Positions 12,520 to 38,458 of a stretch of 38,871 nucleotides of DNA are shown here, piece after piece (the stretch's first letter is position 1; each line of letters begins with the position of its first letter). Source of the stretch: Candidatus Fermentibacterota bacterium. Its GTDB lineage: Bacteria > JAFGKV01. Made by a program: the position numbers and the translations under genes. The stretch spans positions 1 through 38,871 of the forward strand of contig JAUXFG010000015.1 in assembly GCA_030620115.1 (NCBI GenBank), given 5' to 3'. The notes below the pieces were generated by a model. The model worked only from the letters and a program-made list of their open reading frames with translations, was not told where the DNA came from and searched no databases.

Positions 12520-12676
12520 TAGGAATCGCAAGGCCCTTTATGATCTTCAAAAGGGTTATCCCGGACTTCTCACCGGCTTTCGTCGCGAAGCGGTGGAGTT
12601 GGCGGTGGCTGTCCCGCACCCAACGCTTTGGGTGCGGGATGAGAAATGCGGGTTATAGGTTATCCCGGACACCCTT
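12520..12676. repeat. REPIN-like composite repeat. Inverted copy of module 'cttcgcgacgaaagccggtgagaagtccgggataaccc' (12553–12590), then perfect hairpin cccgcacccaa-cgct-ttgggtgcggg (12613–12638), then module 'gagaaatgcgggtta'
   Basis: Same modules recur at 31897–31970, 33530–33700, 37540–37590 and 38366–38450. The six-frame track translates them into pseudo-similar peptides (HRFATKAGEK.., HRFETKAGEK.., SRLATKAGEK..) in different frames. Confidence 0.7.
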
Positions 12677-13073
12677 CTCACAAGAGAGATTCCACCGCGT
12701 GATTGCGGCGATTGCGAGAATGGAATGAGGGAAGACTGGCTCCCATCGATGAAACGGACACAAGACTGCCTCGCGCAGTCTCGTTGTTCTACGACTGCAA
12801 TTGTACAACGAAGTAGGACAAGATTCCTCGCCCCCGTGAACCCAAAGTAGATTCCGTCGATCTATACTGCGAACCTCCTGCCTGCAGTAGTCATGAATCT
12901 GTGGAAGTATGAGCCGCTCTTGACATGAGGAACTATCGACATATAGATTCGGCGTCTATCATCTTTTTTCGTACATTGACTGTCTGATGTTCATGTAGAT
13001 GGAGAGCAAGAAACCCCCGTATTGACACAGGCAGTCCGGATGCCACAAGCACTCTTATTGAGGAGGAAATGAT

Positions 13074-13517
13074 ATGGCAAAGACCATGGTTGAAATGGCA
13101 GCGGAGATTGTTGGAGCCCAGGCGGCTTCGGGCAGGATGTCACCGGAGGAACTCTCAAACTCCATCCACAGAGTGTATGATTCATTGGTGGAGGTTCAGA
13201 GAAAAGAGAAGCTGGCGGAGACGGAGCCGGAAGACGTTAGCGGACTGGGGCAGCTTCGGGCTCGACCGGAAAAATCGATTACTCGCGCGCACGTCATCTG
13301 TCTCGAGTGCGGGATGAAGTTCAAGCAGCTCACGGCCAGACATCTGGCGACCCACGGCGTGTCTCCCGCGGATTACCGCGCCAAATGGGGCTTCACCAAG
13401 AGACAACCCCTTGTCGCCAAGCAGCTTTCTGCCCAGCGTCGCAAGACGGCACTGGACAACAAGCTTGGTGAGCGTCTCGCAGAGGCTCGCCGTCAACGTT
13501 TGGCAGAGAGAGGCTAA
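13074..13517 (+). CDS. MucR/Ros-family C2H2 zinc-finger transcriptional regulator
   Basis: ICLECGMKFKQLTARHLATHGVSPADYRAKWG matches the Ros/MucR zinc-finger and DNA-binding signature. GGAGG RBS 7 nt upstream of the ATG. Long AT-rich upstream region with TTGACA-like -35 elements. Confidence 0.85.
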   Translation: MAKTMVEMAAEIVGAQAASGRMSPEELSNSIHRVYDSLVEVQRKEKLAETEPEDVSGLGQLRARPEKSITRAHVICLECGMKFKQLTARHLATHGVSPADYRAKWGFTKRQPLVAKQLSAQRRKTALDNKLGERLAEARRQRLAERG

Positions 13518-13692
13518 CCCTCCGGTTCCCGCGGGCAGAGGCCTGAGCCAAGCTTTGCTCCGAAAGAGGAACAACAGGCGAGAGTGAGGACCAGCCTCGC
13601 AAGGGAGGCCTCTTTCTCGTCTGAAGTGGATGTATCCTCCCGGTACATGCGACCATGGGAGGAGTCCCAAAAATCGAATGAACCGCTCCAAG

Positions 13693-13732
13693 CCGGTCTT
13701 CGGAACTTGCTTCCGGAGACCGGTTTGTCTTT
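13693..13732 (+). terminator. Putative rho-independent terminator: 11-bp stem ccggtcttcgg / ccggagaccgg (one G·U), 9-nt loop, followed by TTTGTCTTT
   Basis: Read directly from the sequence; lies between the mucR-like gene and tatD. Confidence 0.5.
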
Positions 13733-13893
13733 AATTGCTGAACGTGAGGTCGTATCCTGTTGGCGATCTCTCTATTCGGGGTCGAGGAGTATTTCCGATT
13801 TCTGGTTCTTGCCCCTGCATCCGGAGCCCTTCCTTATGGGACGCGAGGTGGCTGCGGAGAACACTCATTTTCATAGGAGATCCGGAGGGCTGA

Positions 13894-14676
13894 ATGGCTC
13901 GCAGAACAGTCTACGCAGACGCACATTGCCATCTTGATCAACTCGAAGATGCGCCAAAGGAGATCGCTGCCGCCAAGAAGCTCGGTGTGAAGCGTTTCCT
14001 TTCCAACAGCGAGGATCTGGCCTCCATGAAACGTAACCTCGCGCTGGCTCGTGAATTCCCGGGCGTGGTACTCCCGGGGTTGGGCATTCATCCGGCGGAA
14101 TTGGTAGGCCAGGATGACAAAACAGTTGCGGCGGAGCTGGATTTCATCAAGGCGCATGTAGAATCTGCCTCGTTTCTCGGTGAGATCGGCCTTGATTTCC
14201 TGCATGCCGCCACTCCAGTCCAACAGGATCGACAGAAGAAGATCCTCATCGAGCAGTTCGAGGTTGCGGCGGCGGCCGACCTCCCCGTGGTCATCCATTC
14301 CCGCCGTGCACAGCGCCCTGCCATGAACGCCGCGTTTCGATATGTAGAAACATACGGCCGGCCGGTTCTTCTGCACTGGTTTACTCAATCGGTCAAATTG
14401 CTGCTCGAGGTGAATCGCCGACCAGGGATCTATATCTCGGCAGGCCCGGCAGTGCTTTTCAATGCAGGAGCTCGCAAGGTCGTTGCCCATGCCATACTCG
14501 ACCGGTTGCTGGTTGAGACCGATGCCCCCGTGCCGTTCGACGGCGAACCAGCTCGACCATCATGGATACCCCGAGTGGTGGAAACGATTGCAAGCATCTT
14601 CCGGATATCACCCGAAGACCTGGCAAAACAACTGAACAAGAATCTTGATCGCTTCTTAGGACTCGCGCAGAAATAA
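13894..14676 (+). CDS. tatD: TatD-family metal-dependent hydrolase/DNase
   Basis: N-terminal DAHCHLD motif, TIM-barrel hydrolase pattern, 260 aa. Confidence 0.9.
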   Translation: MARRTVYADAHCHLDQLEDAPKEIAAAKKLGVKRFLSNSEDLASMKRNLALAREFPGVVLPGLGIHPAELVGQDDKTVAAELDFIKAHVESASFLGEIGLDFLHAATPVQQDRQKKILIEQFEVAAAADLPVVIHSRRAQRPAMNAAFRYVETYGRPVLLHWFTQSVKLLLEVNRRPGIYISAGPAVLFNAGARKVVAHAILDRLLVETDAPVPFDGEPARPSWIPRVVETIASIFRISPEDLAKQLNKNLDRFLGLAQK

Positions 14677-14745
14677 GTTCGTAGTTATGGCACACAGATA
14701 TGCCGCAGATTGGGTCTCCCCCATGTAGGGGCATGCCGTGCCCAC
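14660..14745. repeat. Inverted partial copy of the composite element seen at 37200–37330: shared 'tg(c/t)gccataact..cttat(t)tctgcgcga(a/g)tcc' and 'catgcccctacatggg'
   Basis: Nucleotide similarity is visible directly. It is also reflected in pseudo-peptides CPYMGE.../AIT..LFLRES in ORFs 14656..14856(-) and 37201..37587(+). Overlaps the last codons of tatD. Confidence 0.6.
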
Positions 14746-15023: not shown

Positions 15024-16868
15024 ATGCTTCTAGACCAAGCCCACTGTCCGGAGACGCCGGGGCCGGATCGAGACGAACTGGTGACTATACGGAAAGCCCG
15101 CGCATTCTTCCCCCAGGCCAAGGAATTGGCGCTGCTGCGCAGAGCATGCAATACCTGGAGAACCAAGAAGACTGGCGTTGCGCTGGAGATTGACCTGTTC
15201 CCGCCCAAAATTCCCTGCCGCTTCCGGAAAATCTGTGCCATCACCGTGGTATCCGACGACTGGCCTGGCATGGGTGAGACATGCCTTGGCATTGTGCACG
15301 AGCGCGGCTGGAATGTCCACTATGCCCAAGGCATGGTTCTCCAGGAAAACGACCAAGACCTGGGCGTGTTCATCATGGCAATCGGCATTGAATCGGATGA
15401 GGGGCTCCGGCAAATATCCGCGGAGCTCAAGGACATTGAGTCGGAGTTGCTGAGCCTGAGCATTGGAAGGCGTGCGAAAATGCTGCTCATCGCCAAGGAA
15501 GCGAAGAAGCTGGCGCTCCTGAGCAAAGTGGTTGAGGAATTGGCCAAGCTTTCCAGCGGCAAAGAGCTCCAAGAGATCATCGCGCCCATGGGAGAATCGA
15601 CAAAGTTCTTTGCGGCACGGACAGATGAGTACATGCATGCCTGGTCACCGGCGGTGCTGGCATATCAGATCACCACGAACTATGGATTGCTCAAGAAGGT
15701 GCGAGCATCCGGTGGTTTCGGTGTGATCCGAGTAGAGAACTGCCAGGCAGCAAACGAAACAAGAACGTGTATCACCGTGGTGGGCCTCGTACGGGACATA
15801 TCGGTGGAAGAGACGCTCCGGGTCGTGGGTGAGCGCCTGGGGTTCCATGAGCAATACCATTTGATTGAGTTTACGACCCAGGATGGACTCAACCTGGTCC
15901 GCTTGGAAATTGGGCAGGCTGGAGGCCGGGAGCTTTCGGTTGCCCAGGTCAAAGAACTCGAGCTCAGCCTCAAAGAAATGCTCTCGGGCCAGCGGGTTGC
16001 CTGGGCACACAGAATCGAGTCCAGGGGAGGCTTCGAGCAGTATGTCAGAGCAATCATACCATTGCTCCTGAAAGAACATGCAGCCACCGGGCTCCCTCAA
16101 GTATATATGTCCCCCACGTCACGCGAGAAGACCGTGGCGAGTTTCAAGGTGATCTTTGTTTATTCTACGCCCGTCGGCCAAACCGCACCGTCGATACGCC
16201 TCCCAGAGTTGTTGCAGGTACTGCCCGGTGTCCAGGTCGTCTCGTCATCGAGTCCAAGGATCATGGGGGATCAGCGTCTGTTCGTCATGAACATCAATGT
16301 TGATCTCACCAAATTCAAGGATACCGAGGACATCTATCACACATTGCGAAAGCAGGTTCACGAGGTCTTCTCGGAATTCCGTGATTTCGATGAGGGAATG
16401 CGCCTCGGTGACATGACGAAGCTCAAGGAAATCGAGGATGCGCTCTCCGGGTATGACCTACGAATCGTGAGTAGGATCTACTACGCCATCGATGATTTCT
16501 CGCGGCTCAGCATGAGCCGGGATGAAATCGTCCGCCTTCTTCGGCTTGGACTGTCGGCTCTCTCTGAACTGGATGCGCGAACCGAACCCGATCCCTCGCC
16601 CGTGATCTATGATGAACGACTCAAGAATCATCATGGAGAGGTGATCTCGGCGCTGTTGGCAATCGTCTCGCCCCAGGGACGGGGTATCCCGAGCTGCATT
16701 CGAGAATTATCATCGCAGGCCCAGGTCACCGTCAGTCAGATCCGGCATGGCGACGGCGAGCTCCTCTTGTGCCGCATCACGGGCATGGGAGGAAATCCTC
16801 CCGATGAGTCCGCGATACAGGATGTCCTCCAGTGTATTGCGGGGATGCAGTGTCACGACTGGCACTAA
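15024..16868 (+). CDS. Hypothetical protein built from ~4 ACT-like (βαββαβ) regulatory repeats; no catalytic domain recognised
   Basis: Repeated segments such as ITVVSDDWPGMGETCLGIVHERGWNVHYAQ, CITVVGLVRDISVEETLRVVGERLGF and KVIFVYSTPVGQ...VQVVSSS. GAGGAGG RBS upstream of the ATG. Confidence 0.55.
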   Translation: MLLDQAHCPETPGPDRDELVTIRKARAFFPQAKELALLRRACNTWRTKKTGVALEIDLFPPKIPCRFRKICAITVVSDDWPGMGETCLGIVHERGWNVHYAQGMVLQENDQDLGVFIMAIGIESDEGLRQISAELKDIESELLSLSIGRRAKMLLIAKEAKKLALLSKVVEELAKLSSGKELQEIIAPMGESTKFFAARTDEYMHAWSPAVLAYQITTNYGLLKKVRASGGFGVIRVENCQAANETRTCITVVGLVRDISVEETLRVVGERLGFHEQYHLIEFTTQDGLNLVRLEIGQAGGRELSVAQVKELELSLKEMLSGQRVAWAHRIESRGGFEQYVRAIIPLLLKEHAATGLPQVYMSPTSREKTVASFKVIFVYSTPVGQTAPSIRLPELLQVLPGVQVVSSSSPRIMGDQRLFVMNINVDLTKFKDTEDIYHTLRKQVHEVFSEFRDFDEGMRLGDMTKLKEIEDALSGYDLRIVSRIYYAIDDFSRLSMSRDEIVRLLRLGLSALSELDARTEPDPSPVIYDERLKNHHGEVISALLAIVSPQGRGIPSCIRELSSQAQVTVSQIRHGDGELLLCRITGMGGNPPDESAIQDVLQCIAGMQCHDWH

Positions 16869-16917
16869 CGCACACTTCCTTGTCCGAGACTCCACTCGTC
16901 ATACACACCCCTGATCA

Positions 16918-17886
16918 GTGAACTGGCGTTTCTCCTGGTATCTGAAGAGGCTTCCTGGAAAGTCTCCTCCCCACTACCTCAATTTGGAACCGACGAATCG
17001 GTGCAACCTTTCGTGCATCTGGTGCGTGGCTTCATCGGCTCGACCGCAGGGGTTCCTCGAGCTTGCGCTGGCCCAACGCGTGCTTGATCAGGCTGCTTCC
17101 GCGGGTGTACGGGAGATCCGCTTTTTTCTTGCAGGCGAACCGTTGCTTCATCCCAAGATCCATGAGCTGGTCTCCATGGCCAAGATCCGGAAGCTCAGGA
17201 CCGTGATTCACAGCAATGCAATGCTTCTCACCCGAGAGAAGAGCAAAGCCCTGATTTCCGCCGGTCTCGACGAAATCTCATTCAGCGTGAACGGCCTCAC
17301 TCATGAGGAAATCAGTCAAAACCAGCCCGGCGCCGAGCTTGATGTGATGGTTTCGCACATCCACGACTTCCTGACGCAAAAACGAGACACAAGCTCTTCT
17401 TTTCCCTTGGTTATCCTCCAAATCATACAGCATCCCACTGAATTGGGAAAACCGCTGGACCGAGACAGGATAAAGGCCTTGTTTGGTGAGCCTGGCCCCG
17501 ATCGGATTCTCCGCCTTGCCCCCCATTCCTGGGCCGGCCAGCTTTCCGGCGATGCCGCGGCTGCGCGAGGAACGCGATATCATCCCTGTCAGCCTCTCTG
17601 GCAGGGCATGAGCGTGGCGTGGGATGGACGAGTGTTCCTCTGCTGTGGAGATCTGAACGGCAGGGTGGTAATTGGTGACCTCAGACAAGAGCAGCTCATG
17701 GATGTATGGAACGGTCAACGATTGAACAAAATAAGACAACACGTGGTAAAGAATGATCGGAGCGCACTTGCTCTCTGTTCCGGATGCGATGCCCTCTGGT
17801 GGCACACGCATCCTCTGAGCCATGACCTAAGAAGAGCCGGCTGGAGAGTGCTCGGCAGGGTTCTCCACAAGACCAAGGGATTTTGA
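16918..17886 (+). CDS. Radical SAM enzyme with C-terminal SPASM/twitch-like auxiliary cluster domain
   Basis: CNLSCIWC (CX3CX2C) at residues ~29–36; C-terminal CQ...CCGDLNG...CSGC cysteine cluster; GTG start; 322 aa. Confidence 0.8.
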   Translation: MNWRFSWYLKRLPGKSPPHYLNLEPTNRCNLSCIWCVASSARPQGFLELALAQRVLDQAASAGVREIRFFLAGEPLLHPKIHELVSMAKIRKLRTVIHSNAMLLTREKSKALISAGLDEISFSVNGLTHEEISQNQPGAELDVMVSHIHDFLTQKRDTSSSFPLVILQIIQHPTELGKPLDRDRIKALFGEPGPDRILRLAPHSWAGQLSGDAAAARGTRYHPCQPLWQGMSVAWDGRVFLCCGDLNGRVVIGDLRQEQLMDVWNGQRLNKIRQHVVKNDRSALALCSGCDALWWHTHPLSHDLRRAGWRVLGRVLHKTKGF

Positions 17887-17899
17887 GAAGGAGAATTCA

Positions 17900-19726
17900 A
17901 TGAAGGAACAGATCCGCCGGGTTCTCTGTCGCTTCCAGGGTGGAGCCACTCCTGCGCTTCGTGGATCATCTTCCGCCTTCTGGATGATATGCGCAGCGCT
18001 CTCGCTTCTCGCCTGTTCCGACAAGAAGGGCCCTCGCCTGGTAATCCTGGGGCTTGACGCAGCGAACTGGGTATCCATGGAACCTCTTCTGGAGGAGGGG
18101 CTTCTCCCCAACCTCTCTCGACTCATTCGAGAGGGCGCCGCGGGCTCATTGTCTACTTTTATTCCCACCGCTTCCCCAGCCATTTGGACCACTATTGCCA
18201 CCGGCCAGTCTCCCGACAAGCATGGTATCGCTTTTCGCGTGCTCCAGATAGGAGAAGGGAAACCCGGGGAGGAGATGCTCGCCGCTATCAGCTCTGATGA
18301 GCGGGAGGTCAAGGCGCTGTGGAACCTCTTCACGGATTACGGCATCCAGAGTGCATTCATCGGCTGGTGGGCAACATGGCCCGCGGAAAAGATCCTTGGA
18401 TATGTGGTTTCTGACAAGGTGTATGAACCCCGGCTCAAACGGACCACATTCCCGACGGATCTTCGCAACAAACTTGCCCGGCAGGGTCTGCTTGAACAAG
18501 GATTGCCGCCCGAGCAGAAGGCTTGGTTTCGAAGGTTGCGGGGTGAGTTCAATGCATGGCGTCAAAACGTGGAAGAGGGAAGAACGCGGTGGACGGGGAC
18601 TGCCCCAAACGTAAAACGTTACTTCCAAGATCTCGAGGAGAAACTCCAAGCATACCGCCGAATAATGGCATTGGACTACCGCACAGAGCTGATTACGCAT
18701 CACCTGATGGATACTGATCCACCCGTCGAAGTCATTGCACCGTATTTCTGGTACATGGATATCTGCCAGCACATATTCTGGAAATACTGGAAGCCGGAAG
18801 GCTTCGACATCGACGAGAAAGAATTGGAGATCTTCGGAAAACTTGTTCCCCACTACTACGAGTTCATTGATGAGGTCGTCGGCAGGATCCTCGATCATGC
18901 CGGTCGCCATGCTATGGTTGTTGTCGTTTCAGACCATGGCATGGAAAGCTACTACTCGGACGCGTATGTCAACGATCTCTTCGATGTCGAAGGCGTGCTT
19001 GTCGACCTTGGCTGGTCGACCCGCGGTGCGGACAGGCGCCCGGATCTTGCACGATCAAAGGCTTATGTGAAGGCTGGGTCTCGACAGATGCGCCTCATCA
19101 ACCTCTCGGTGCAGGGACGTGAGCCGCACGGCAAAATCCAGGAGAAGGATCGGGCAGCGATGGTGGAGACGTTGGCCGAACAGCTCAAATCACTCAAGAC
19201 ACGGGCCTCTTCGAGACCTCTCTTCAACGAGGTGAGGATCCTGGGTGATTCGGAACAGAGCTATTCCACAGGCGGCTTTGTCTACTATGTCTTCGAACGC
19301 GCGGATCTCGCCTTGACTCTTAATAATCATGTGGATCTCGATGATTCCTTGAATGTCGCGGGAAAGGTCTTTCCATTGTCCCGTTGGAACAAGTGGCGCC
19401 CGTCGATCACGGGGCATCATTCCATGGCGCCCGCAGGCATCGTCATACTCAAAGGAGCTCCCTTTCAACGAGGCGCACGCCTTGAGAATGCGCGGGTCCA
19501 CGATGTTACTCCCACGATCATGGCCGCCTTTGGCCTCCCGGTGGCGGAGGATCTTGAAGGAAGAGTACTTGCCGAGGGCTTTAGGCAAGCGTTCTTCGAG
19601 AACAGCCCCGTTATCTCGATTCCCGGCTATGGCGCCAGGGCCGCCTTTGTAAAAGAGGGCATTCTGGAGGGCAGTGCGGACGACGCGCTCATCCAGCAGT
19701 TGAAGGCAATCGGCTACATACGGTGA
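17900..19726 (+). CDS. Alkaline-phosphatase-superfamily enzyme of the NPP / type I phosphodiesterase family; predicted lipoprotein
   Basis: LVILGLDAANW metal-binding start; IPTASPAIWTTIATGQSPDKHGI nucleophile region resembling the NPP TxP...TG...HG signature; VVVSDHGME. Signal peptide with lipobox LLAC. AGGAGA RBS. Confidence 0.8.
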   Translation: MKEQIRRVLCRFQGGATPALRGSSSAFWMICAALSLLACSDKKGPRLVILGLDAANWVSMEPLLEEGLLPNLSRLIREGAAGSLSTFIPTASPAIWTTIATGQSPDKHGIAFRVLQIGEGKPGEEMLAAISSDEREVKALWNLFTDYGIQSAFIGWWATWPAEKILGYVVSDKVYEPRLKRTTFPTDLRNKLARQGLLEQGLPPEQKAWFRRLRGEFNAWRQNVEEGRTRWTGTAPNVKRYFQDLEEKLQAYRRIMALDYRTELITHHLMDTDPPVEVIAPYFWYMDICQHIFWKYWKPEGFDIDEKELEIFGKLVPHYYEFIDEVVGRILDHAGRHAMVVVVSDHGMESYYSDAYVNDLFDVEGVLVDLGWSTRGADRRPDLARSKAYVKAGSRQMRLINLSVQGREPHGKIQEKDRAAMVETLAEQLKSLKTRASSRPLFNEVRILGDSEQSYSTGGFVYYVFERADLALTLNNHVDLDDSLNVAGKVFPLSRWNKWRPSITGHHSMAPAGIVILKGAPFQRGARLENARVHDVTPTIMAAFGLPVAEDLEGRVLAEGFRQAFFENSPVISIPGYGARAAFVKEGILEGSADDALIQQLKAIGYIR

Positions 19727-27365: not shown

Positions 27366-27443
27366 AGAGTACAGCAAATATGAAATGTACTCTCAAAGAA
27401 GCATTCAGCGTTCAGCGTTCAGCGTTCAGGGTTGTAAGTTCAG
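27366..27443. promoter_or_regulatory. 9-bp inverted repeat gagagtaca/tgtactctc with AT-rich loop (27366–27395), followed by tandem heptads cattcag-cgttcag-cgttcag-cgttcag-..-agttcag (27402–27443)
   Basis: Read directly from the sequence. Lies 90–160 nt upstream of the minus-strand SH3b lipoprotein gene. Confidence 0.5.
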
Positions 27444-27518
27444 AACTTCGGCAATGACATGTCAACCAGAATGGACGCTTTCCTCGATCTCGCGTAACAT
27501 CTCAATAAATCCGGGCAT

Positions 27519-27547
27519 CCGACATCCTCCCCCTTTGGCAAAGGGGG
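27519..27547. repeat. Repeat module 'gcatccgacatcctcc(c/a)ccttt(g/c)gcaaagggg', including the hairpin ccccctttggcaaaggggg
   Basis: Second copy at 31759–31790. Confidence 0.6.
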
Positions 27548-27876
27548 ATTGAGGCCACCGGCTCATAGAGCCTATGGCTCGGTGAGGGGATTTTTCCAAT
27601 ATCGCACGGACTTATTGAGAAACCACGACTATTGGACATACATAACACCATGGCCATTCCCTCTCCTCCGCAACATCTTCGGAATCGGAATCGGCATCGC
27701 TATCGAAATCAGCCACCCAGCTGCTCGTTTTTCTAACCTTCGTCAGACATCTATATTCTCGTGACTGAGGGCTATGTGATCACACCTCAATTCGATTCCG
27801 ATCCCGATCAACTCGTCTTTTTCCGCCTCTATTCATACCCAATGGCATATGTGTCACCCAGACAAGACGCCCTTCC

Positions 27877-30321: not shown

Positions 30322-31518
30322 CTATTGAGGAAAACGCGGTCGAACCGGCGTTCGCTTGAAGTCAGATCGGTTGAGATTGACGTCTACATTAGGATCATAG
30401 TGCTCGTCATTCGTATAGATGACATCACCGCCGGGATTCGTCCAGCGATTCTCCCATTGATTGGAACCAGTTTCCACCTCATTGGTGAATGGGTTCACAT
30501 ACTCCTCTTGTTCAGTAAGCGTGAGAAATGTGTCATTATTGATCTCTGCATTGGTCTTGGTTTGGTGATCCGCGATCTCCTGGCCGATTCGGTTGATATC
30601 GCGGATCACATCCGCGGCGATTTGCCCTCGGGTAATCTGTCCTCGGATCTCTCCCGTAACCCACTTTGGATTGAGCCTCACGGATCTCAAGATGATACCT
30701 GCAACCGGTTCCCACTGCACGAACTCATCCGCCGGCGCCCGCGCGAAGAATGTTGACTTGTTCTTCCACCCTCCAGGTATGAGATACCCATAGTCTTCAA
30801 TGCCAGTGAAGAAGGTTTCTCTATATTGAGTGCCTCCTTCTCGATAGGAGACCGTCATTATTGCGACATCATAGGATAGCGCCAGCCCGGGCATCATGGC
30901 GCGTTGGGCATCCTGGAACTGCTTGGCCACCTTCGGGAGTGCACGCTGCTCGACCACTTGAACCGTCTGTGCGTGGGGACGCGCTTTGGGGAATACCACC
31001 CGACTTAGGAACTCGAGCGCAGAGAGCTTCGGCCAGACAGTCATGCCGGCGTAGTTGCTCCCCTGGGGAAACATGCCCATTTGTCCGGCGGGTGAAAACC
31101 TCATATCGATATACATGAGCTCGGGCACCCATTTCATCATCACCGATCCCATCTGATCCTTTTTCAAGGCAAAATCGAGCTTTGCCTCTATGGACTGCGC
31201 GGGGCCGCCCTGGGCCGTTGGATCGATCCGGACAATGCCCCCTTCCACCAACCAGCCCTGCGGAACCAGAAGGTCGAAGGCGCGCTCCCGAGGTTCGGCC
31301 TTTCGCACAAAACGGACCGTGTGTGCTATGCCGCGTTCGCTGGCTGTCGAGGCTTCAAGATGTGTTGTCTGCCTCGCCTGGCCTTGAGCCTCCGAAGGGG
31401 AGCTGCGGGCAGCATCGACCTGGGTGGATGACTCTGATGATTCTCCCTTGGATTCAGTCTGCCCCCCACAGACGAGCAGGAACGGCAGAAAGAACAGGCC
31501 AAGTGTATACTGTCTCAT
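30322..31518 (-). CDS. Secreted lipoprotein, function unknown
   Basis: Signal peptide with lipobox LLVCGG. Start taken at the MRQYTLGLFF... ATG (31518); the ORF-track start at 31551 adds 11 residues. Confidence 0.5.
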   Translation of the reverse strand: MRQYTLGLFFLPFLLVCGGQTESKGESSESSTQVDAARSSPSEAQGQARQTTHLEASTASERGIAHTVRFVRKAEPRERAFDLLVPQGWLVEGGIVRIDPTAQGGPAQSIEAKLDFALKKDQMGSVMMKWVPELMYIDMRFSPAGQMGMFPQGSNYAGMTVWPKLSALEFLSRVVFPKARPHAQTVQVVEQRALPKVAKQFQDAQRAMMPGLALSYDVAIMTVSYREGGTQYRETFFTGIEDYGYLIPGGWKNKSTFFARAPADEFVQWEPVAGIILRSVRLNPKWVTGEIRGQITRGQIAADVIRDINRIGQEIADHQTKTNAEINNDTFLTLTEQEEYVNPFTNEVETGSNQWENRWTNPGGDVIYTNDEHYDPNVDVNLNRSDFKRTPVRPRFPQ

Positions 31519-31559
31519 TTGGATTCTCCTTGCCGAATCATGGGTTAGCATAGCTTCTC

Positions 31560-31964
31560 GTGTAACCGTTCAGGGGTTGAAAGGTTGATAGGTTCAGGGT
31601 TCACCGGAAATCCGAACCGTTGAGTCGTGGGATCTGAAAGGTAGCCTTGAATCCCGCTTCCAGCGGGAAACTCTGAACCTGTGAACGCTTACAGATGGCC
31701 CAAGCTGACTTCAGGCAACCCTGAACGGTGAACGCTGAACCCGTGAACGGCTTGTCCGTGCATCCGACATCCTCCACCTTTCGCAAAGGGGAATTCATCC
31801 GATATCTCACGAACTCATTGAGAAGTTACCAACTCCGCACATATTGCGCTATGGAGGGACGTCGGCTTCCAGATACTTCGCTGTCGCTCTGCATCCCGCG
31901 TCAGACGCGGGACAGCCACAGCCAACTACACCGCTTCGAGACGAAAGCCGGTGAGAAGTGCGGG
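31560..31964. repeat. Repeat cluster of four parts: TGAAC heptad arrays (31570–31600, 31660–31680, 31705–31740), the CCTTTCGCAAAGGGG hairpin module (31759–31790), the GC hairpin cccgcgtcagacgcggg (31897–31913), and module 'gagacgaaagccggtgagaagtgcgggctaag' (31936–31968)
   Basis: Direct comparison with 27400–27550, 12550–12660, 33530–33700 and 38366–38450. Confidence 0.65.
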
Positions 31965-33506
31965 CTAAGGATGCAACTGGCGCCGCCATCTCAATGCTAC
32001 AAGAACATGTCCCTTAAGTCGACGCCACCCGTTCTTGAGCGCCACCAGCCGATTGAAAAGGCTCTCGAAATAGGGCCGGTTGAATAGGGAGAGAAAGACC
32101 GGCTTGGAAAGGATTCGTACGATGCCATGGGGAAAACCTCGGGCGAGGAGTACATAGAGGACATTGAGGTAGTTACGGCGGAAAACACGATAGTCCTTCT
32201 GGTACAGAAGCCTCTCTTCGTCTACTATTCCTTCGGATAGCGCCTTCTCCAATAGCTTCGTACCCGGGAACAGTGCTAGCGAATAGAGCTGCAATACAAA
32301 AGGTCTTGGCAGGTCAAGGACCAGTTGAAGGGTCTCAAGTTCGTCCTCTATTGCGGAGAAGGGATTATCCAGAATGATGTCATAGAGAGGAATGATGCGG
32401 CCTTTGTACTTGTTGATGATCTTGGCGGCCTGAGTGACTGTTTCGCGTGAAGACCAAGTGCGTTGATACAGCTCATTTATCCTCTTGCTTCCTGTCTGGA
32501 TCCCGACCTGAAGCAAGAAAAGCCCCGCGTCCGCGAGGTACTTCATTTTTTCGGATGTGATACTCCGAGGGGTGGCCGTACACCGAAATGGGAGAGCTAC
32601 TTCTCTGGTATATGCCTCAAGAAAGTCCCTTATCTCTTCATTCCGTGTGTGAACGAATGTATCATCAGAAAAAAGAATGGCCCGTACAAAAGGAAAGCGT
32701 TCTCTGAATGCTTTGATCTCAGCAATTGCATTGGCATTCGACCGGCGTCGAACGTACGGCTGCCCAGGATAAAGCGCAGCCAACGCTTGATTGCCGCAGA
32801 ATGTGCACTTGTATGGACAACCCCGCGTAATCATGATCTGAAAGGTCGATTGAGCCCGACGGAGAGATCGAGGGCCGTAGTCCAGATAAACCTCAAGTAA
32901 GCCTGGATCCAAATTGACGATCCGCTGTTCTTCACGGCGGGAGATGTATTGATCTTCAAGATCGTAGTCCTGGAAGGGGAGAGTATCGAGATCCTGCAGC
33001 AGTGGGCGAAGCGGCGTCTCCACAATATGCCCATCTGTTTTCGTGTAGATATTCCTGATTCTTGTGGTGGGTTTGTCCTCTTTGAGAGCAATTGCCAACT
33101 CCAGTAGCGCTTCTTCCCCTTCCCCAACGCATACGAAATCTGCGTGCTCCAGGCATTGTTCTGGACGGAGAGTTGGATGAATTCCTCCCCATACGACGGG
33201 AACGCCCAGGCGTTGCACGATCCCGTCTGTGAGATGCCCCATGGAATGATGGTAATTTGTCATCATGGAGATGCCGATGAGAGATGACCCCTCGCACAGC
33301 TCAATCACCTGATCAATAACGTGAGGAGGGAATGTGAATTCCCAATTCGGGGTATCAACCTCTTCACAGAGCAAAACGTTCGATAGGAACAGCATTCGCG
33401 TCGAAACGCCATGTTCTTTGAGATACGACGAAAGCCCGCGCAGACTAAGAGCGGAAATATCAGTAAAGGGACTGATGAGAACAACGTCATAGGATTTCAT
33501 AAACAA
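31965..33506 (-). CDS. B12-binding-domain radical SAM protein (class B radical SAM family)
   Basis: N-terminal Rossmann-like cobalamin-binding domain (VVLISP...GISMMT...VVWGGIHPT), then radical SAM motif ITRGCPYKCTFC (CX3CX2C), then a long C-terminal domain; 513 aa. Confidence 0.85.
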   Translation of the reverse strand: MFMKSYDVVLISPFTDISALSLRGLSSYLKEHGVSTRMLFLSNVLLCEEVDTPNWEFTFPPHVIDQVIELCEGSSLIGISMMTNYHHSMGHLTDGIVQRLGVPVVWGGIHPTLRPEQCLEHADFVCVGEGEEALLELAIALKEDKPTTRIRNIYTKTDGHIVETPLRPLLQDLDTLPFQDYDLEDQYISRREEQRIVNLDPGLLEVYLDYGPRSLRRAQSTFQIMITRGCPYKCTFCGNQALAALYPGQPYVRRRSNANAIAEIKAFRERFPFVRAILFSDDTFVHTRNEEIRDFLEAYTREVALPFRCTATPRSITSEKMKYLADAGLFLLQVGIQTGSKRINELYQRTWSSRETVTQAAKIINKYKGRIIPLYDIILDNPFSAIEDELETLQLVLDLPRPFVLQLYSLALFPGTKLLEKALSEGIVDEERLLYQKDYRVFRRNYLNVLYVLLARGFPHGIVRILSKPVFLSLFNRPYFESLFNRLVALKNGWRRLKGHVLVALRWRRQLHP

Positions 33507-33519
33507 TCACCTTAGTTCT

Positions 33520-33730
33520 ATCCGTTCAGTCCGCGTCACGCGGCATCTTTGTTCGGTACTGCCGACGTGATGTGACAAATCCCTCCTCGTGATCCCGCGT
33601 TCGCCGCGGGGGGAAGAAATGCGGGCTTAGCCCAAGCTTCTCACCAATCCTGCGGCGGGTTCGCTTCGAAAGCCGGTGAGAAGTCCGGATTAGGCGGGTT
33701 TCGAACCCGGCTTTGGACTCAAAACAGGGA
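33520..33730. repeat. REP-like cluster with three components: hairpins tccgcgtcacgcgg and cccgcgttcgccgcgggg, modules 'ggaagaaatgcgggcttagcc' and 'cgaaagccggtgagaagtccggattaggc', and 'gtttcgaacccggctt'
   Basis: Same module family as at 12553–12656, 31897–31968, 37540–37590 and 38366–38450. Confidence 0.65.
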
Positions 33731-33812
33731 TAAGAAGGAGATCTTTTTGAAATTTGCAAGAGATCGGTGTGAATATGAGGATATCTTGGAAGAACCCTTC
33801 TGGGGGCCAAGT

Positions 33813-34820
33813 GGGGTCAGGCATTGCTAACGGCGAATTGAGATTTACTCTTCACGTCATTGATACGATCGTGTAGTGTTCTATCCCGATTCATCCTGTT
33901 CCGTAATCGAGCCGCGCCCGCGCTCAGGGTCGAGCTGTCCCGCTGAAATACTTTCGCCGCTTCTGCAATCGTGATCTCAGGGTGCTCCTGTACTATCAGC
34001 CCGATAACCGACCGCGCCTCTGACGCCAATCGTCCCCTTCCCGGTGCCAAAAGCTCGTCCTGTGCTATCCCGTATGCTTTGCATACGCCATCAATGATCC
34101 CGTCGAGTGTTATCCGTGTCCCTTTCATGCCATCTTCGGCTTCCTGCACTCGCTCGATGAAACTCTCATTTCCGATGAGTCGACCGTCAGACTGCGCCGG
34201 ACTGAACTCAGACTTGGCTGCGTCACTATCCAATCCACCCAAAACGAATCGGTGGAACCGTTCTCGTGCTTCTCCTTCTCGGTCTGCAAACCGAGCCAAA
34301 ACCAACCCCTCTGTGAGCCAGGGCAGTGTATCGTCTCCTCTGTAGAATCGATGGCTGCTCCAGCGATATGATTCCGGTCTTTTCATGATACCGGCTCGCA
34401 CAGGATTGAGATGAATGTAGCTCACCAATTGAAGCAGATAGGAGTCGACATCTACCAAATTTGTCTTGTACCGCCCCTGAAACAGATGACCAACTCGTTG
34501 GTGGCGCCTGTTGAACCACTGGGTATACCGGAACGTGAGATTCTGCATGATGCGGGAGAGTGGCCGTTCTCCCACCTGGATCGCGATATGGATGTGGTCG
34601 TCGAGCAGACAAAACGCGTGAACGCGGTACCCAAATCGCTCGGTCCCTTCTTGCATCAAAAGACAAAATCTTGTCCGGTCTACGTCATCATAGAACACAT
34701 CATCCTGGGCGTTCCCCCGCAGGATGACATGATACAAGGCCCCTTGATAGTGGATTCGTGGTTTACGTGACATGCTGTCCAATATACATACTCACATCGC
34801 TGTTAGCAATGCCTGACCCC
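33813..34820 (-). mobile_element. Y1 (IS200-like/RAYT-type) transposase unit bounded by 23-bp imperfect terminal inverted repeats: ggggtcaggcattgctaacggcg (33813–33835) and cgctgttagcaatgcctgacccc (34798–34820)
   Basis: The inverted repeats match at 22 of 23 positions. The right IR encodes the C-terminal ...AVSNA of the transposase. Confidence 0.7.
33817..34773 (-). CDS. IS200-like Y1 tyrosine transposase (REP-associated tyrosine transposase-like) with C-terminal DnaA-C-like helix-turn-helix domain
   Basis: HxH motif DDHIHIAIQ and catalytic-Tyr region YRWSSHRFY typical of the Y1_Tnp family; C-terminal GIAQDELL...ITIAEAAKVFQRDSSTLS resembles DnaA domain IV. Start taken at ATG 34771–34773; the ORF-track start at 34782 is a TTG. 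Confidence 0.8.
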   Translation of the reverse strand: MSRKPRIHYQGALYHVILRGNAQDDVFYDDVDRTRFCLLMQEGTERFGYRVHAFCLLDDHIHIAIQVGERPLSRIMQNLTFRYTQWFNRRHQRVGHLFQGRYKTNLVDVDSYLLQLVSYIHLNPVRAGIMKRPESYRWSSHRFYRGDDTLPWLTEGLVLARFADREGEARERFHRFVLGGLDSDAAKSEFSPAQSDGRLIGNESFIERVQEAEDGMKGTRITLDGIIDGVCKAYGIAQDELLAPGRGRLASEARSVIGLIVQEHPEITIAEAAKVFQRDSSTLSAGAARLRNRMNRDRTLHDRINDVKSKSQFAVSNA

Positions 34821-34827
34821 AATCGGC

Positions 34828-35078: not shown

Positions 35079-35462
35079 CTACTTCGTGTAGGCTGGCCTG
35101 AGGCCCTTAAGCATAGGGTAGTGTTTGGTGTTGAGGGTTTTCAGCTCCGCGTTCTCGGCTTGAGCGGTAGCAGCCAAGATGGCATCTGCAAGGCCGACGC
35201 CGTGTGACTTGGCATAATCACGCTTGTAGAGCCCTCCAGTCTTCGCGATCGCCGCATCTACAGGGATAACACGAAAGAGTGAGATGAAATCCTCCAAAAC
35301 AACTTGTTCTGCATCTCCCTTCACTCCAGCGTATAGTTCCGCAACGACGATGGATGACAGGACAATTAGATCAGATTTGGCGTTTACCAAGGCCAGCGCT
35401 TTGCTGTGGCCGCGGAGGAAGTCAACAAGAACATCTGTGTCGAGAAGGATTGACTTTGCCAT
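35079..35462 (-). CDS. vapC: PIN-domain toxin
   Basis: ILLDTDVLVDFL (first conserved Asp), PIN fold pattern. Start ATG overlaps the antitoxin stop (ATGA). Confidence 0.85.
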   Translation of the reverse strand: MAKSILLDTDVLVDFLRGHSKALALVNAKSDLIVLSSIVVAELYAGVKGDAEQVVLEDFISLFRVIPVDAAIAKTGGLYKRDYAKSHGVGLADAILAATAQAENAELKTLNTKHYPMLKGLRPAYTK

Positions 35463-35464
35463 GA

Positions 35465-35698
35465 TCAGTTCCTGTCCCATTCGGCTCGCGTTGCCTTGAA
35501 GTCAGGAAGATCCGTACGATTCTTCCAGATTCCGGCAGCCTCGCGTAATACCACCTCCCGTCGACTGCGGCCTGATTGATCGATGAGGCGATTGACGGCC
35601 TCTCGAATGAGCTCGCTCTGTTTTTTCCCCGCGGTCTTGGAGATAGCAGCCAGTTCGTCACGTTGGTGCTCTGTCAGGTATATCTGCGTTCGTATCAT
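35465..35698 (-). CDS. vapB: Ribbon-helix-helix (CopG/VapB-type) antitoxin
   Basis: 77 aa; N-terminal RHH pattern TQIYLTEHQRDELAAISK; located upstream of and coupled to vapC. Confidence 0.8.
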   Translation of the reverse strand: MIRTQIYLTEHQRDELAAISKTAGKKQSELIREAVNRLIDQSGRSRREVVLREAAGIWKNRTDLPDFKATRAEWDRN

Positions 35699-35705
35699 GC
35701 GACAC

Positions 35706-36049: not shown

Positions 36050-36280
36050 CTATTCGTTGTCATCATCTCGCAGCATCACCATTGCCCCATGGATTACTGC
36101 AATGACATCAATTTGATCTGATTTGATGTGATATATGATTCTGTATGGACCGACAAAGACTTCTCTGATTTGATCAATGTCATATTCTGGGACACGACGG
36201 CCAGACAGCGGAAACGCCCCTATCTGTTGCGATTTCCTTGTGATTCGATCAACTGTGCGAAGTGCATATATGGCGTCCAA
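36050..36280 (-). CDS. ParE/RelE-superfamily toxin; N-terminus uncertain
   Basis: GAFPLSGRRVPEYDIDQIREVFVGPYRIIYHIKSDQIDVIAVIHGA matches the ParE/RelE core. The only in-frame canonical start is a TTG. The 12 codons upstream (IKIHWTETAEGH) look like a genuine ParE N-terminus but lack ATG/GTG/TTG. Confidence 0.6.
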   Translation of the reverse strand: MDAIYALRTVDRITRKSQQIGAFPLSGRRVPEYDIDQIREVFVGPYRIIYHIKSDQIDVIAVIHGAMVMLRDDDNE

Positions 36281-36312
36281 ATGTCCCTCTGCCGTTTCTG
36301 TCCAATGTATTT

Positions 36313-36501
36313 TTATTCAGGGAGTCCGTATTTCTTTCTGATCTCATTTACATCTTTTATTCTGCCTGCGTTGCTGTCTTCCAGTCCCTTCTCAATGGCT
36401 TCACGCACATAAATCTCGTGCATCAAGTCATCCCACGTCGCATCAGCCGGCAGTTGATCGACCAGCCTATGAGCATCTTCTTTTCTGACTACGGTGGACA
36501 T
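36313..36501 (-). CDS. Type II antitoxin (ParD/Phd-like) cognate to the downstream ParE-like toxin
   Basis: 62 aa from MSTVVRKEDAHRL... to ...IRKKYGLPE; AGGAGG RBS 7 nt upstream of the ATG. The ORF-track N-terminal extension to 36687 is non-protein-like. Confidence 0.6.
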   Translation of the reverse strand: MSTVVRKEDAHRLVDQLPADATWDDLMHEIYVREAIEKGLEDSNAGRIKDVNEIRKKYGLPE

Positions 36502-36544
36502 ACATGTGCCTCCTCTTGCCGATTCGCAATCAATGATTGAGTTC

Positions 36545-36695
36545 TTGCCGAATGTGTGCGAGCTCAGCGGCGCCCGGACGTGGCGGAGCAAGCTTGCATG
36601 CGGAGTCCTGGGAGGGTGTCCGCTCGAGCGAGTCGTTCGGCGGCACAAGCCGCCGGGCAACTCGCTTGCGAAGCAGCTCGCACACATTCGGACGG
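36545..36695. repeat. Highly structured GC-rich element: 17-bp perfect inverted repeat ccgaatgtgtgcgagct/agctcgcacacattcgg separated by ~110 bp that itself contains nested hairpins (ccggcggc-acaa-gccgccgg; gcgagt...actcgc)
   Basis: Read directly; lies immediately upstream of the antitoxin gene on the minus strand. Confidence 0.5.
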
Positions 36696-37295
36696 CAGCG
36701 CAGCCGACGTCCGAACCTTGATTATAGGACGGTTCTGCCTACAAATATCCACATACATAATGCGCTGCAGAGGAGAAGGCAACAAGTTCTTGGGGAAATT
36801 GAGCGGTCTTGGCTTGACTCAGAGCGTTGACGAGTAGAGCCAATAGCTAGCGATATATGGTCATTAAATGAAATAACAGAGAGATAGCATGACCAGATCA
36901 CTTATTGCTTCGTTCAATTCAAATCCGAGATGGCCGAGTGGTACTGCATCCAAGTGCTTCGGAATTGGATGGTAGAGGAGAGCGATATTGCTCATTTCTT
37001 GCGATGGGTCCGAGCGTTCTTCGCTGCATAAGAGAGCTCCGCTTTGAACCATGTCTGATGGCATTTGCTGGATGCTTGATGCTGGAAGGAAAGGACGGAT
37101 CAAGGGTCCCGTCTACGCTTGACCGCGCCGTGACAAATCACCGTGGCGACCTGTCTCGGCGAAGCTCGAAGAGCGAAGACGGAAGCCGGATGGGCATGGC
37201 ATGCCATGCCCCTACATGGGCGAGGTCTGGGAGCGTCAGGAAAGGGATGGGGGATTGTCGGGTTACGCTATGCTAACCCGACCTACGGGATACTG

Positions 37296-37600
37296 CGCCA
37301 TAACTGTGATCTTATTCTTGCGCGAATCCTTGGCTATGTCTCGCCCTTTCAGGGCTGAGGGGTTTTACTTCTGTGCCTGTGCCCCAGGGCTACGCCCTGT
37401 CGGGCTTTCCCTGGGCTGGTATGTCAAGCCCCTTCAGGGCACATTGCGAGAATGGCTATATCGACTGACGGACAGAGTATACGGCATCGGGCTACGCGCT
37501 GGCAGAGCCGGGGTCCTCGATCGTCCCGGGACAGCCGCAGGCATCTATGGCCTCTCGCGACAAAATCGGATGAGAAGTCCGGGTTAAGATGCGACATCTG
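37296..37600 (+). repeat. Composite repeat copy A (~300 bp) with three modules: 'cttattcttgcgcgaatccttggctatgtctcgccctttcagggctgagg', 'ccagggctacgccc...gggctttccctgggctggtatgtcaagccccttcagggcacattgcgagaatggctatatcg', and terminal 'tctcgcgacaaaatcggatgagaagtccgggttaag'
   Basis: Direct repeat of 38165–38458, roughly 85% identical with one 26-bp hairpin indel, by eye alignment. Confidence 0.75.
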
Positions 37601-37690
37601 ATGAAATTCTTCTTCGGGAACATCACACCTTTTCGTGGACGGGAAAATGGGCAGCAAAGAATAGTCTAGTAAATCTATGGATTTACTAGA

Positions 37691-38143
37691 CTATTCATCT
37701 ATCTGCTTCAGGATGGCCTGGATTTCATGGGCGAATGCCCGGATCTCGTCGCGGATGCGACGGTAGTGTTGAAGAGCTTCATCCTCGTTATGCGCGCGCG
37801 CAGCAAGCGCCGGGGGATCATCGAATCCGCGGTGGAGCATGGTCGTTTTGCGTGGAAAGATCGGGCACGTTTCCCTGGCGTGGCCGCAGAGGGTAATGAC
37901 ATAGTCGAATTCCACATCGAGTAGTTCTTGCACGTCTTTTGAACGCTGGTCCGAGATATCAACGCCAGCCTCCGCCATTACTATGATGGCCCTCGGATCC
38001 ACGCTTTTTGCCACGATGCCCGCGGAATATGCCTCCACCAGGTCACCCATGAGACGACGCGTCCACCCTTCTGCCATCTGGCTCCTGCAGGAATTCCCGG
38101 TGCAGAGAAAGAGTATCTTCGGATTCAGTTGCTTCTCTTGCAT
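37691..38143 (-). CDS. arsC: Arsenate reductase of the LMW-PTP (thioredoxin-coupled) family
   Basis: ILFLCTGNSCRSQMAEGW (CX5R P-loop), downstream Cys pair LCGHARETCP, GFDDP; 150 aa; aligns along its length with the pI258-type ArsC pattern. Confidence 0.9.
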   Translation of the reverse strand: MQEKQLNPKILFLCTGNSCRSQMAEGWTRRLMGDLVEAYSAGIVAKSVDPRAIIVMAEAGVDISDQRSKDVQELLDVEFDYVITLCGHARETCPIFPRKTTMLHRGFDDPPALAARAHNEDEALQHYRRIRDEIRAFAHEIQAILKQIDE

Positions 38144-38164
38144 GGCACTCGTCCCCTATTGGCG

Positions 38165-38458
38165 CGCTATTCTCGCGCGAATCCTTGGCTATGTCTCGCC
38201 CTTTCAGGGCTGAGGGATTTTCCTTCTGTGCCCCAGGGCTACGCCCCGTCGGGCTTTCCCTGGGCTGGTATGTCAAGCCCCTTCAGGGCACATTGCGAGA
38301 ATGGCTATATCGGCTGACGGACAGAGGCTACGCCCTGGCAGAGCCGGGAGCCTTGGTCGTCCCGCACCCAAAGCGTTGGGTGCGGGACAGCCACAACCAT
38401 TTCTCCCGTCTCGCGACGAAAGCCGGTGAGAAATGCGGGTTAAGCATGAGATGTGACA
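38165..38458 (+). repeat. Composite repeat copy B; contains the hairpin cccgcacccaa-agcg-ttgggtgcggg (38368–38393) and terminal module 'tctcgcgacgaaagccggtgagaaatgcgggttaag'
   Basis: Direct repeat of 37296–37600. Its hairpin has the same stem as 12613–12638 but a reverse-complemented loop, so the two copies are in opposite orientation. Confidence 0.75.

Follow-up and report, generated by a model that had tools for sequence, protein, structure and literature searches.

Insertion sequences (ISs) of the IS1380 family, among them IS1380, ISEcp1 and ISPme1, have ends starting with CC and generate duplications of 4–5 bp (ISfinder). Here we analyze the dispersed repeats in a 38,871-bp contig of a Candidatus Fermentibacterota bacterium (JAUXFG010000015.1, the whole of which is referred to as the window) and conclude that they are very probably decayed copies of a transposable element of the miniature inverted-repeat kind (a MITE) derived from an IS1380-family IS, a known kind of element. 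The partner IS of the repeats resembles the known family members in being ~1.7 kb long, with a single open reading frame (ORF), short terminal inverted repeats (TIRs) beginning with CC, and 4-bp target-site duplications (TSDs). The window differs from such ISs in holding non-coding derivatives only, and the 176-bp derivative found elsewhere differs in being a near-perfect long hairpin with covariation, in which both ends resemble the right end of the IS. Members of the IS1380 family use surrogate ends and mobilize adjacent DNA (PMC9330008).

The repeats also resemble long-hairpin MITEs of other bacteria, such as the Correia/NEMIS, ERIC and RUP elements, which are likewise short, non-autonomous, intergenic and present in many copies, with TIRs, TSDs and a hairpin spanning the whole element. 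Correia elements duplicate a TA target, whereas the present family duplicates 4 bp at YTAR, has a parent IS from another family and extends over several phyla. Any RNA-level role of the present family is hypothetical. Its termini are presumably unrelated to the ends of IS5. The target consensus and the duplication length are those of IS5 (PMC5009759), although the partner IS encodes an IS1380-family transposase and not one of IS5 type.

Sequences of the repetitive extragenic palindromic (REP) type are short palindromes moved as single-stranded hairpin doublets (REPINs) by single-copy REP-associated tyrosine transposases (RAYTs) of the Y1/HUH type. HUH/Y1 transposition, as in IS200/IS605, leaves no target duplications. 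An earlier sequence-only reading of the window had taken the repeats for a modular, REP/REPIN-like family at seven or more loci. They share with REP/REPIN systems that they lie between genes, form hairpins and occur in both orientations, near a Y1 gene. They differ in having TSDs, long inverted repeats, a parent IS of the DDE type and a spread across phyla, and in not flanking the Y1 gene. A further class, the terminal inverted repeat-associated tyrosine transposases (TIRYTs), consists of Y1 transposases bounded by GGGGWSAS inverted repeats, forming TIRtrons (PMC3733652); for subclass 2.1.2 of Quentin et al., no nearby REP-like sequences were found (PMC6006769).

Copies of the element in the window

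Repeat detection and sensitive self-BLAST recovered a direct repeat of ~284 bp (37313–37594 versus 38168–38451, E 3e-63), the first ~170 nt of which are 95–96% identical, and two inverted matches, one of 94 nt at 84% identity (12556–12649 versus 38350–38443) and one of 71 nt at 87% (12556–12626 versus 31898–31968). In addition, 31883–31973 aligns with 38356–38448 at 75% and 37527–37595 with 31908–31977 at 74%, and a 29-nt match at 33660–33688 ties that site to the MITE unit. The 21-mer GAAAGCCGGTGAGAARTSCGG is present in 4 copies, compared to 0.00 expected from 100 shuffles. The repeats are genuine and non-random: the dispersal described in the sequence-only reading lies far beyond chance by both self-BLAST and 21-mer shuffles, and aligned copies longer than 80 bp were found rather than short chance matches.

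Six of the seven loci listed in that reading carry repeats. The seventh, 36840–37100, holds no copy of any module, and its sole match is 22 nt long (37065–37086 versus 6230–6251) and misses an E-value of 1e-3. The hairpins reported at 12613 and 38368 are real, with stems of 12 bp (12612–12639 and 38360–38387), and a shorter hairpin lies at 31894–31912. The loops of the two long hairpins are reverse-complemented as described, but it is the whole 94-nt unit that is inverted between the sites, because the copies at 12.5 and 38.3 kb inserted in opposite orientations. Any element inserting in either orientation gives a flipped loop, which is thus no hallmark of REPINs. The division of the repeats into hairpins and sequence modules (ii) to (iv) holds for modules (iii) and (iv), which are separate, but module (ii) and the hairpin are a single unit, the end of an element. 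Module (ii) is the TIR (CCCGCAYTTCTCACC...) of a MITE family.

An nhmmer search with a profile that comprised foreign 176-bp elements alone (alignment A2) gave matches at exactly five sites of the window, with E-values of 4e-11 to 7e-5. All five matches start at the same element terminus, end A (model position 1; positions 2–47 for the 33.6-kb copy):

38439–38364, minus strand: profile match, E 4.3e-11, model positions 1–76
31964–31899, minus strand: profile match, E 2e-08, model positions 1–66
12560–12631, plus strand: profile match, E 2.2e-08, model positions 1–72
33688–33642, minus strand: profile match, E 6e-05, model positions 2–47
37583–37533, minus strand: profile match, E 6.6e-05, model positions 1–51

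The copies and their flanks at these sites are as follows:

12556–12559: left TSD (TTAT) of the 93-bp copy, identical to 12653–12656, non-palindromic
12560–12652, plus strand: complete, internally deleted MITE of 93 bp, junctions read
12653–12656: right TSD (TTAT) of the 93-bp copy
31877–31964, minus strand: one-ended copy with end A and the hairpin 31894–31912, no recognizable second terminus, sharing 87% identity with the 12.5-kb copy across 71 nt
31965–31968: YTAR flank CTAA, in which 31965–31967 are the TAG stop codon of the B12/radical-SAM (S-adenosylmethionine) gene 31965–33506 (minus strand)
33593–33625, plus strand: remnant with the hairpin TCCCGCG..CGCGGGG, then a truncated terminus GGAAGAAATGCGGG (at up to 3 mismatches)
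33627–33630: left TSD (TTAG) of the mini copy, identical to 33690–33693, non-palindromic
33631–33689, minus strand: complete 59-bp mini-MITE with two termini and a short linker, comparable to 53–59-bp copies elsewhere
33690–33693: right TSD (TTAG) of the mini copy
37316–37583, minus strand: composite copy downstream of arsC (alignment A1; self-BLAST versus the 38.3-kb copy)
38171–38439, minus strand: composite copy upstream of arsC (alignment A1)

The 93-bp copy consists of end A (~58 nt), the hairpin 12612–12639 and a 13-nt end B (TGAGAAATGCGGG), and its predicted fold pairs the two termini (–48.8 kcal/mol, z –3.8). As TTAT is non-palindromic, the flanking bases form a direct duplication rather than continuing the inverted repeat. 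Immediately beyond this copy, at 12660–12684, its left junction recurs (GGTTAT/CCCGGAC, with a slash at the junction) and leads into a degenerate terminus (CCCGGACACCCTTCTCACAAG); this may be one more decayed copy in tandem. At 33.6 kb, the 59-bp copy, whose termini also pair in the predicted fold (–26.4 kcal/mol), is inserted beside the older remnant 33593–33625. This remnant has the same junction between the hairpin and the 13-nt end as 12612–12652.

The composite downstream of arsC comprises a degenerate end A (37533–37583), a collapsed hairpin (~37522–37534), a stretch homologous to the central region of the canonical MITE, and module (iv); it is flanked by TTAT (37312–37315) and TTAA (37584–37587). 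The composite upstream of arsC has the same parts with an intact end A (38364–38439) and the full hairpin 38360–38387, is flanked by CTAT (38167–38170) and TTAA (38440–38443), and folds with a predicted –125.8 kcal/mol (z –4.0). The central-region homology amounts to ~35 nt in alignment A1, and the far end of each composite has no recognizable terminus. The TCCCGC...GCGGGA hairpin was found only within the window copies and in L008, the most similar foreign element. Because it occurs only inside these elements, it is an internal trait of a local subfamily and not a free-standing REP.

The repeats of the window are intergenic, GC-rich and hairpin-forming. By Pfam and NCBIfam assignments, the 12.5-kb copy sits between ftsY and mucR and the 14.7-kb block at the 3' end of tatD; the repeats at 31.9 and 33.6 kb lie at either end of one B12/radical-SAM gene and those at 37.5 and 38.3 kb on either side of an arsC-type gene. 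FtsY is ~61–62% identical to its nearest named homologues, from Ca. Eisenbacteria and Ca. Fermentibacteria, and the contig probably does not belong to the Acidobacteriota. Scans of the window, including Pfam, NCBIfam and Rfam, revealed no tRNA, Rfam family, integrase or DDE transposase, and a search of a plasmid collection gave only short, irrelevant matches. Exact look-ups of the Y1, arsC and FtsY products retrieved no recorded protein.

The family outside the window and its autonomous partner

When one genome per species was scanned, the 21-mer turned up at 30 loci, mostly in metagenome-assembled genomes of Acidobacteriota from several classes, and also in Nitrospirota, Planctomycetota, Deltaproteobacteria and Thiohalobacter. 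Three loci from Acidobacteriaceae (L001, L006 and L011) and a few others were discarded as coding or chance matches. A metagenome scan for the terminus gave at least 120 loci. The family is thus found in Acidobacteriota, Nitrospirota, Planctomycetota, Proteobacteria and the lineage of this contig. In the genuine loci, conservation ends sharply after GCGGG and YTAR, and the inverted partner, YTAR followed by CCCGCAYTTCTCACC..., lies 57–248 bp upstream. We recovered 80 complete elements from genome and metagenome loci. Their lengths range from 53 to 267 bp with a mode of 176 bp, 55 of the 80 measuring 175–177 bp, and a class of 53–59 bp recurs (for example 57 bp in L009). The TIRs are 13–30 bp long, with CCCGCAYTTCTCACC... 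at both ends of all 80 copies.

Perfect 4-bp direct repeats flank 31 of the 80 elements (CTAG in 20, TTAA in 7, TTAG in 3 and CTAA in 1), and most of the others are one base off. Flanks that are not palindromic agree as direct repeats, never as reverse complements, and the pairs CTAA/TTAG and TTAG/CTAA do not occur among the 80 elements. The four bases are therefore a true target-site duplication at YTAR, and the possibility that YTAR is part of the inverted repeat is ruled out. A duplication of TA only, as in IS630-like elements, is ruled out as well, as the outer and inner flank bases covary. Since YTAR contains TAA or TAG, the target often includes a stop codon: in 10 elements the stop codon of the adjacent ORF abuts the element and so falls within the duplicated YTAR, as for gyrA and pdxT in L020, in L031, and for the radical-SAM gene of the window (31965–31967).

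Elsewhere the copies are single and dispersed, with no arrays, among ordinary genes (gyrA, pdxT, kinases and transporters in the sampled loci), and ORF clustering next to solo ends revealed no shared ORF beside the element ends. Many of the metagenome contigs (L032–L151) start or end 25–175 nt inside an element or exactly at an IS terminus. In L113 (425–2100), a 176-bp MITE is split by an insertion of ~1.5 kb encoding an IS110-family (DEDD) transposase, so the 1676-bp pair of ends there was rejected as an autonomous copy; the MITE thus acts as a landing site for a site-specific IS110-family element.

The autonomous partner was identified in L088, which starts at base 1 of the IS. One of 10 sampled ORFs, L088 62–1504, encodes an IS1380-family transposase (470 aa, L088 92–1504) that matches Pfam PF13701 with E 6e-154 (513 bits, cut-off 34.7) and NCBIfam NF033539, "IS1380 family transposase", with 387 bits (cut-off 180). 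The IS occupies positions 1–1736, starts CCCGCATTTCTCA, ends GGTGAGAAATGCGGG/TTAG (...GAAAGCTGGTGAGAAATGCGGG then TTAG) and contains a single ORF. Four further full copies of 1731–1736 bp (L152–L155) have the same 14-nt termini in contigs of 42–130 kb, with flanks CTAG/CTAG, CTAG/CTAA, CTAA/CTAA and CTAG/CTAG. Homologues of the transposase at E ≤ 1e-60 number at least 8000. The best 120 of these are 77–96% identical and lie mostly on contigs of 1.7–2.5 kb, and some of the listed homologues carry the name IS1380 family transposase (Terriglobia bacterium). Both termini and the 4-bp YTAR duplication are common to the MITE and the IS. Both MITE ends resemble the right end of the IS over 20–24 nt; the left end of the IS shares 14 nt only.

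Mobility in this lineage is supported by a presence/absence polymorphism at a YTAR site in a close relative. L031, a Logan contig from SRR22936143, is 94.7% identical to window positions 6361–12404 and reads ...cccaCTAG/CCCGCATTTCTCACCGG... where the window reads ...cccaCTAG/ctgtcttc...:

6362–6365: empty target CTAG, containing the stop codon of gene 6362–7750 (minus strand); occupied by an element terminus in L031

This occupied/empty pair is one case with one visible junction, as the L031 contig ends 25 nt into the element. We found no description of the terminus sequences, the MITE family or its autonomous IS in the searchable literature.

Competing explanations and the long hairpin

The features by which a MITE is recognized are all observed: TIRs, TSDs, small non-coding elements, an autonomous partner with the same ends, and an occupied and empty site. 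In our reading, an autonomous IS of ~1.73 kb, with CCCGCATTTCTCAC at both termini and a 470-aa DDE transposase, duplicates 4 bp at YTAR, and its non-autonomous derivative, canonically 176 bp, folds into one long hairpin. The window copies comprise two complete miniatures with TSDs, one solo end, one hairpin-plus-terminus remnant and two composites flanking arsC. The IS1380 transposase would act in trans on them. The one-ended and composite copies may have arisen by deletion, internal insertion or the use of surrogate ends, as known for ISEcp1 and ISPme1, and most window copies would now be immobile. By analogy with these ISs, use of a surrogate end together with adjacent DNA could be the source of the one-ended composites. 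As a general cause of solo ends, one-ended transposition was rejected, since partial copies elsewhere show no bias (23 with end A and 23 with end B); for the window it is at most a possible cause.

Several observations weigh against derivation from an IS1380-family element. No IS1380 transposase gene is present in the 38.9-kb window, and L088 holds the sole autonomous copy among the 151 loci collected by terminus pattern. Three of the five window sites have no recognizable second terminus, and the left flanks of the composites (TTAT and CTAT) match their right flanks (TTAA) only partly. End A is kept at all five window sites, yet there is no such preference among the partial copies elsewhere. 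Nothing in the canonical element corresponds to modules (iii) and (iv), and an IS1380-type element does not explain them.

The Y1 gene next to the 33.6-kb repeats belongs to a separate structure:

33806–34827, minus strand: TIRtron, with the Y1 gene 33817–34773 and 37-nt inverted repeats at 33806–33842 and 34791–34827 carrying GGGGTCAG

The gene matches PF01797 (Y1_Tnp) and PF08299 (a DnaA-C-like helix-turn-helix), and its translation contains the HUH motif (as HIH) and the RY motif. It is intact, and the inverted repeats overlap its stop codon. All these traits are those of the TIRYTs, but the likeness concerns a neighbouring gene and not the repeats, and the arms have no significant similarity to the MITE termini. 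The structure at 33806–34827 is a TIRtron of the published class (subclass 2.1.2), unrelated to the MITE repeats. The Y1/TIRYT gene was also rejected as the mobilizer of the repeats: no homologue lies near any element end, and the likeness of arms and termini is loose and of opposite polarity.

The long hairpin was analyzed in 62 aligned elements, with a median pairwise identity of 0.61 as measured on a 66-copy set. Compensatory changes are present in 36 of the 47 predicted pairs. Paired cells make up 92.3%, compared to 74.5% in shuffles and 32–47% with slid partners, and the covariation score is 0.479 versus 0.183, with none of 500 shuffles reaching 0.479. G·U pairs occupy 266 cells and A·C pairs 51; 15 pair columns have at least 10% G·U, and no column reaches 10% A·C. 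Of the two strands, A-to-B (transposase-sense) is the more stable one (mean –108.9 versus –94.3 kcal/mol) in 61 of the 62 copies, in 20 of 21 representatives below 80% identity, and likewise in the three window copies tested. These values come from related sequences and from a structure predicted on the A-to-B strand. Orientation relative to neighbouring ORFs, from crude ORF calls, is weakly biased (24:15 and 27:23), so a simple explanation by co-transcription is unsupported. Taken as a model, selection on one specific strand may have kept the long hairpin of the 176-bp element, which we put forward as a tentative and rather doubtful proposal.

How do other explanations account for these results? 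REPs or REPINs moved by a RAYT would explain why the repeats are intergenic, GC-rich and hairpin-forming and why the family hairpin is strand-asymmetric, as expected from single-strand processing. A RAYT-like Y1 gene does lie 117 nt from one repeat cluster, with "REP-associated tyrosine transposase" as its best NCBIfam match, and CGTC in two copies, CATC in the remaining ones, stands before the hairpin, resembling CGTC-tagged REPs (PMC3733652). The match, however, scores 67 bits, below the NCBIfam RAYT cut-off of 80, and the gene is of the TIRYT class, its GGGGTCAG inverted repeats being unrelated. This gene is bounded by the unrelated 37-nt arms and has MITE remnants at just one side, and no Y1 homologue occurs in 921 kb around ~270 element ends. 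The repeated unit is 57–94 nt or more from the IS terminus and not a palindrome of 20–40 nt bearing a GTAG or CGTC tag that is conserved and unpaired, the hairpin sequence is variable, and the TCCCGC hairpin is confined to these elements in the window and L008. With 4-bp TSDs and long TIRs, a DDE-type IS1380 parent with identical ends, and a family spread over several phyla and not one lineage, we consider a REP/REPIN origin very improbable. Still less credible is that the repeats are attC sites of an integron, in a cassette array or an integrase-less cluster, with the GTTAAGC end of module (ii) as R' core site. It is true that GCGGGTTAAGC fits GTTRRRY, that the partner arm ends in ..TTAAC, and that arsC and toxin-antitoxin genes are typical cassette cargo. 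But the window has no integron integrase or tyrosine recombinase, the arms are fully complementary, with the terminal 17–20 nt paired without bulges, unpaired spacer or extrahelical bases, and the flanks are direct 4-bp duplications. The copies have mixed orientation in the window, those elsewhere are single, among housekeeping genes and never in arrays, and an IS with the same ends exists.

A family of structured non-coding RNAs, cis-regulatory or small RNAs whose copies were conserved for an RNA function and not by transposition, would fit the compensatory changes, the covariation score, the G·U excess and the greater stability of one strand. As a sole explanation it leaves the duplications, the empty and filled site and the IS parent unaccounted for. 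No Rfam family matches, the orientation relative to ORFs is only weakly biased, and the insertion sites are unrelated genes; we regard it as improbable in this form. An RNA role could be superimposed on the MITE explanation, with which it is compatible. A more local alternative concerns the 284-bp pair flanking arsC, which might stem from segmental duplication or gene conversion of one composite and not from two insertions. The module (iv) parts are 95–96% identical, as against 66–79% for the end-A parts; both composites have the same orientation, 855 bp apart, and neither the rest of the window nor the 151 loci contain module (iv). On the other hand, each composite has its own YTAR-like flanks (TTAT...TTAA and CTAT...TTAA), and a 20-nt hairpin deletion and many substitutions separate the end-A parts, which are therefore older than the module (iv) parts. 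We find duplication in place of two insertions possible but on the unlikely side; the uneven identity suggests, at the sequence level, local duplication or conversion on top of older insertions.

Other features of the window and consequences

Module (iii) (GCCAWAAYTGTGAWCTTATTYYTGCGCGAAYCC) and a 27-nt block form two collinear arrangements:

14660–14745, minus strand: module (iii) at 14660–14692 and the 27-nt block at 14716–14742, collinear with 37198–37330
37198–37330, plus strand: the 27-nt block at 37198–37224 and module (iii) at 37298–37330, abutting the composite copy

Module (iii) is also partly present at 38165–38185, and at 14.7 kb it supplies the last codons and the stop codon of tatD. 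In L098, an unrelated metagenome contig, a similar sequence occurs as an inverted pair (6100–6122 and 6336–6370, spaced by ~270 bp); the pair lies upstream of radical-SAM genes and a small ORF rich in lysine. Module (iii) could be a terminus of some other small element or else a regulatory site that is conserved, and the 14660–14745 block is not part of the IS1380-type element. Module (iv) has two copies only, both inside the 284-bp repeat, and none among the 151 loci. No Rfam family reaches its gathering threshold in the window, and none matches the canonical elements. In a permissive search, Acido-Lenti-1 gave weak hits in module (iv), at 37383–37441 and 38232–38290 (18.6 bits, threshold 37). 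A genuine Acido-Lenti-1 RNA (49.5 bits) lies at 4591–4636 (minus strand) in L044, 135 nt from a MITE. There is none in 137 kb of other MITE-bearing loci, and the co-occurrence in L044 is probably incidental.

A near-perfect palindrome of 38 nt (ctagtaaatctatggatttactag core) at 37659–37696, directly 3' of the arsC stop codon, is likely a bidirectional terminator between arsC and the composite repeat. We also considered whether 37588–38439, that is arsC plus one composite, is a mobilized module, as its TTAA...TTAA flanks might indicate. This was rejected: TTAA is a common flank, and the left junction is unlike a terminus.

Between the TIRtron and arsC, 35079–35698 and 36050–36687 hold two putative toxin-antitoxin pairs. 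One consists of a PIN/VapC-like gene and an upstream 77-aa partner, the other of a weakly RelE-like 76-aa ORF and a 124-aa ORF of no known family. This stretch has the lowest G+C content of the window (0.49–0.54). The cluster at 15024–21808 could be a locus for peptide or glycan modification: it comprises three radical-SAM genes, of which one has a SPASM domain, together with a gene of a phosphodiesterase family, a glycosyltransferase gene and a 614-aa ORF without a Pfam match. Runs of a 7-nt unit (CTGAACG/GTGAACC; consensus ~CAACCCTGAACGSTGAAC) make up a second repeat family:

27404–27434, 31560–31600, 31716–31750 and 38596–38625: runs of the 7-nt unit
27510–27550 and 31755–31795: also assigned to this family

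Three of the four runs lie upstream, in sense, of ORFs (26942–27280 and 30322–31551, both minus strand, and the ORF starting at 38647). By eye, the N-termini of these three ORFs are hydrophobic and putatively signal-peptide- or lipoprotein-like. A conserved block of 41 nt with a 10-bp palindrome (TCCCCCTTTG.CAAAGGGGGA) stands beside two of the runs. The 7-nt runs could form an array bound by a regulator, or else a leader element.

The view of this part of the contig as a plastic region agrees with our results, as four of the five element sites fall within 31.5–38.9 kb, together with the TIRYT gene, the toxin-antitoxin genes and arsC, and G+C is lower there. The sequence-only reading was right in spirit, in that the repeats are dispersed, intergenic, hairpin-forming and of a non-autonomous mobile kind, and wrong in kind: the TSDs and the IS1380 parent speak against the assignment to REP/REPIN.

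For annotation, the sites in the window are to be masked as IS1380-derived MITE remnants and not treated as ORFs, REPs or regulatory RNAs. More widely, assemblies of soil and sediment metagenomes often break at this repeat family. The hairpin, which is unusually well conserved, strand-asymmetric and covarying, is the sole lead that could point to something new, either in the mechanism of IS1380 transposition or in the use of RNA. If selection does keep it on one strand, the element may be transcribed as a structured RNA, for example a 3'-end stabilizer, an RNase target or a regulator at many genes in several phyla; alternatively, IS1380-type transposition may proceed via a strand-specific, single-stranded hairpin intermediate.

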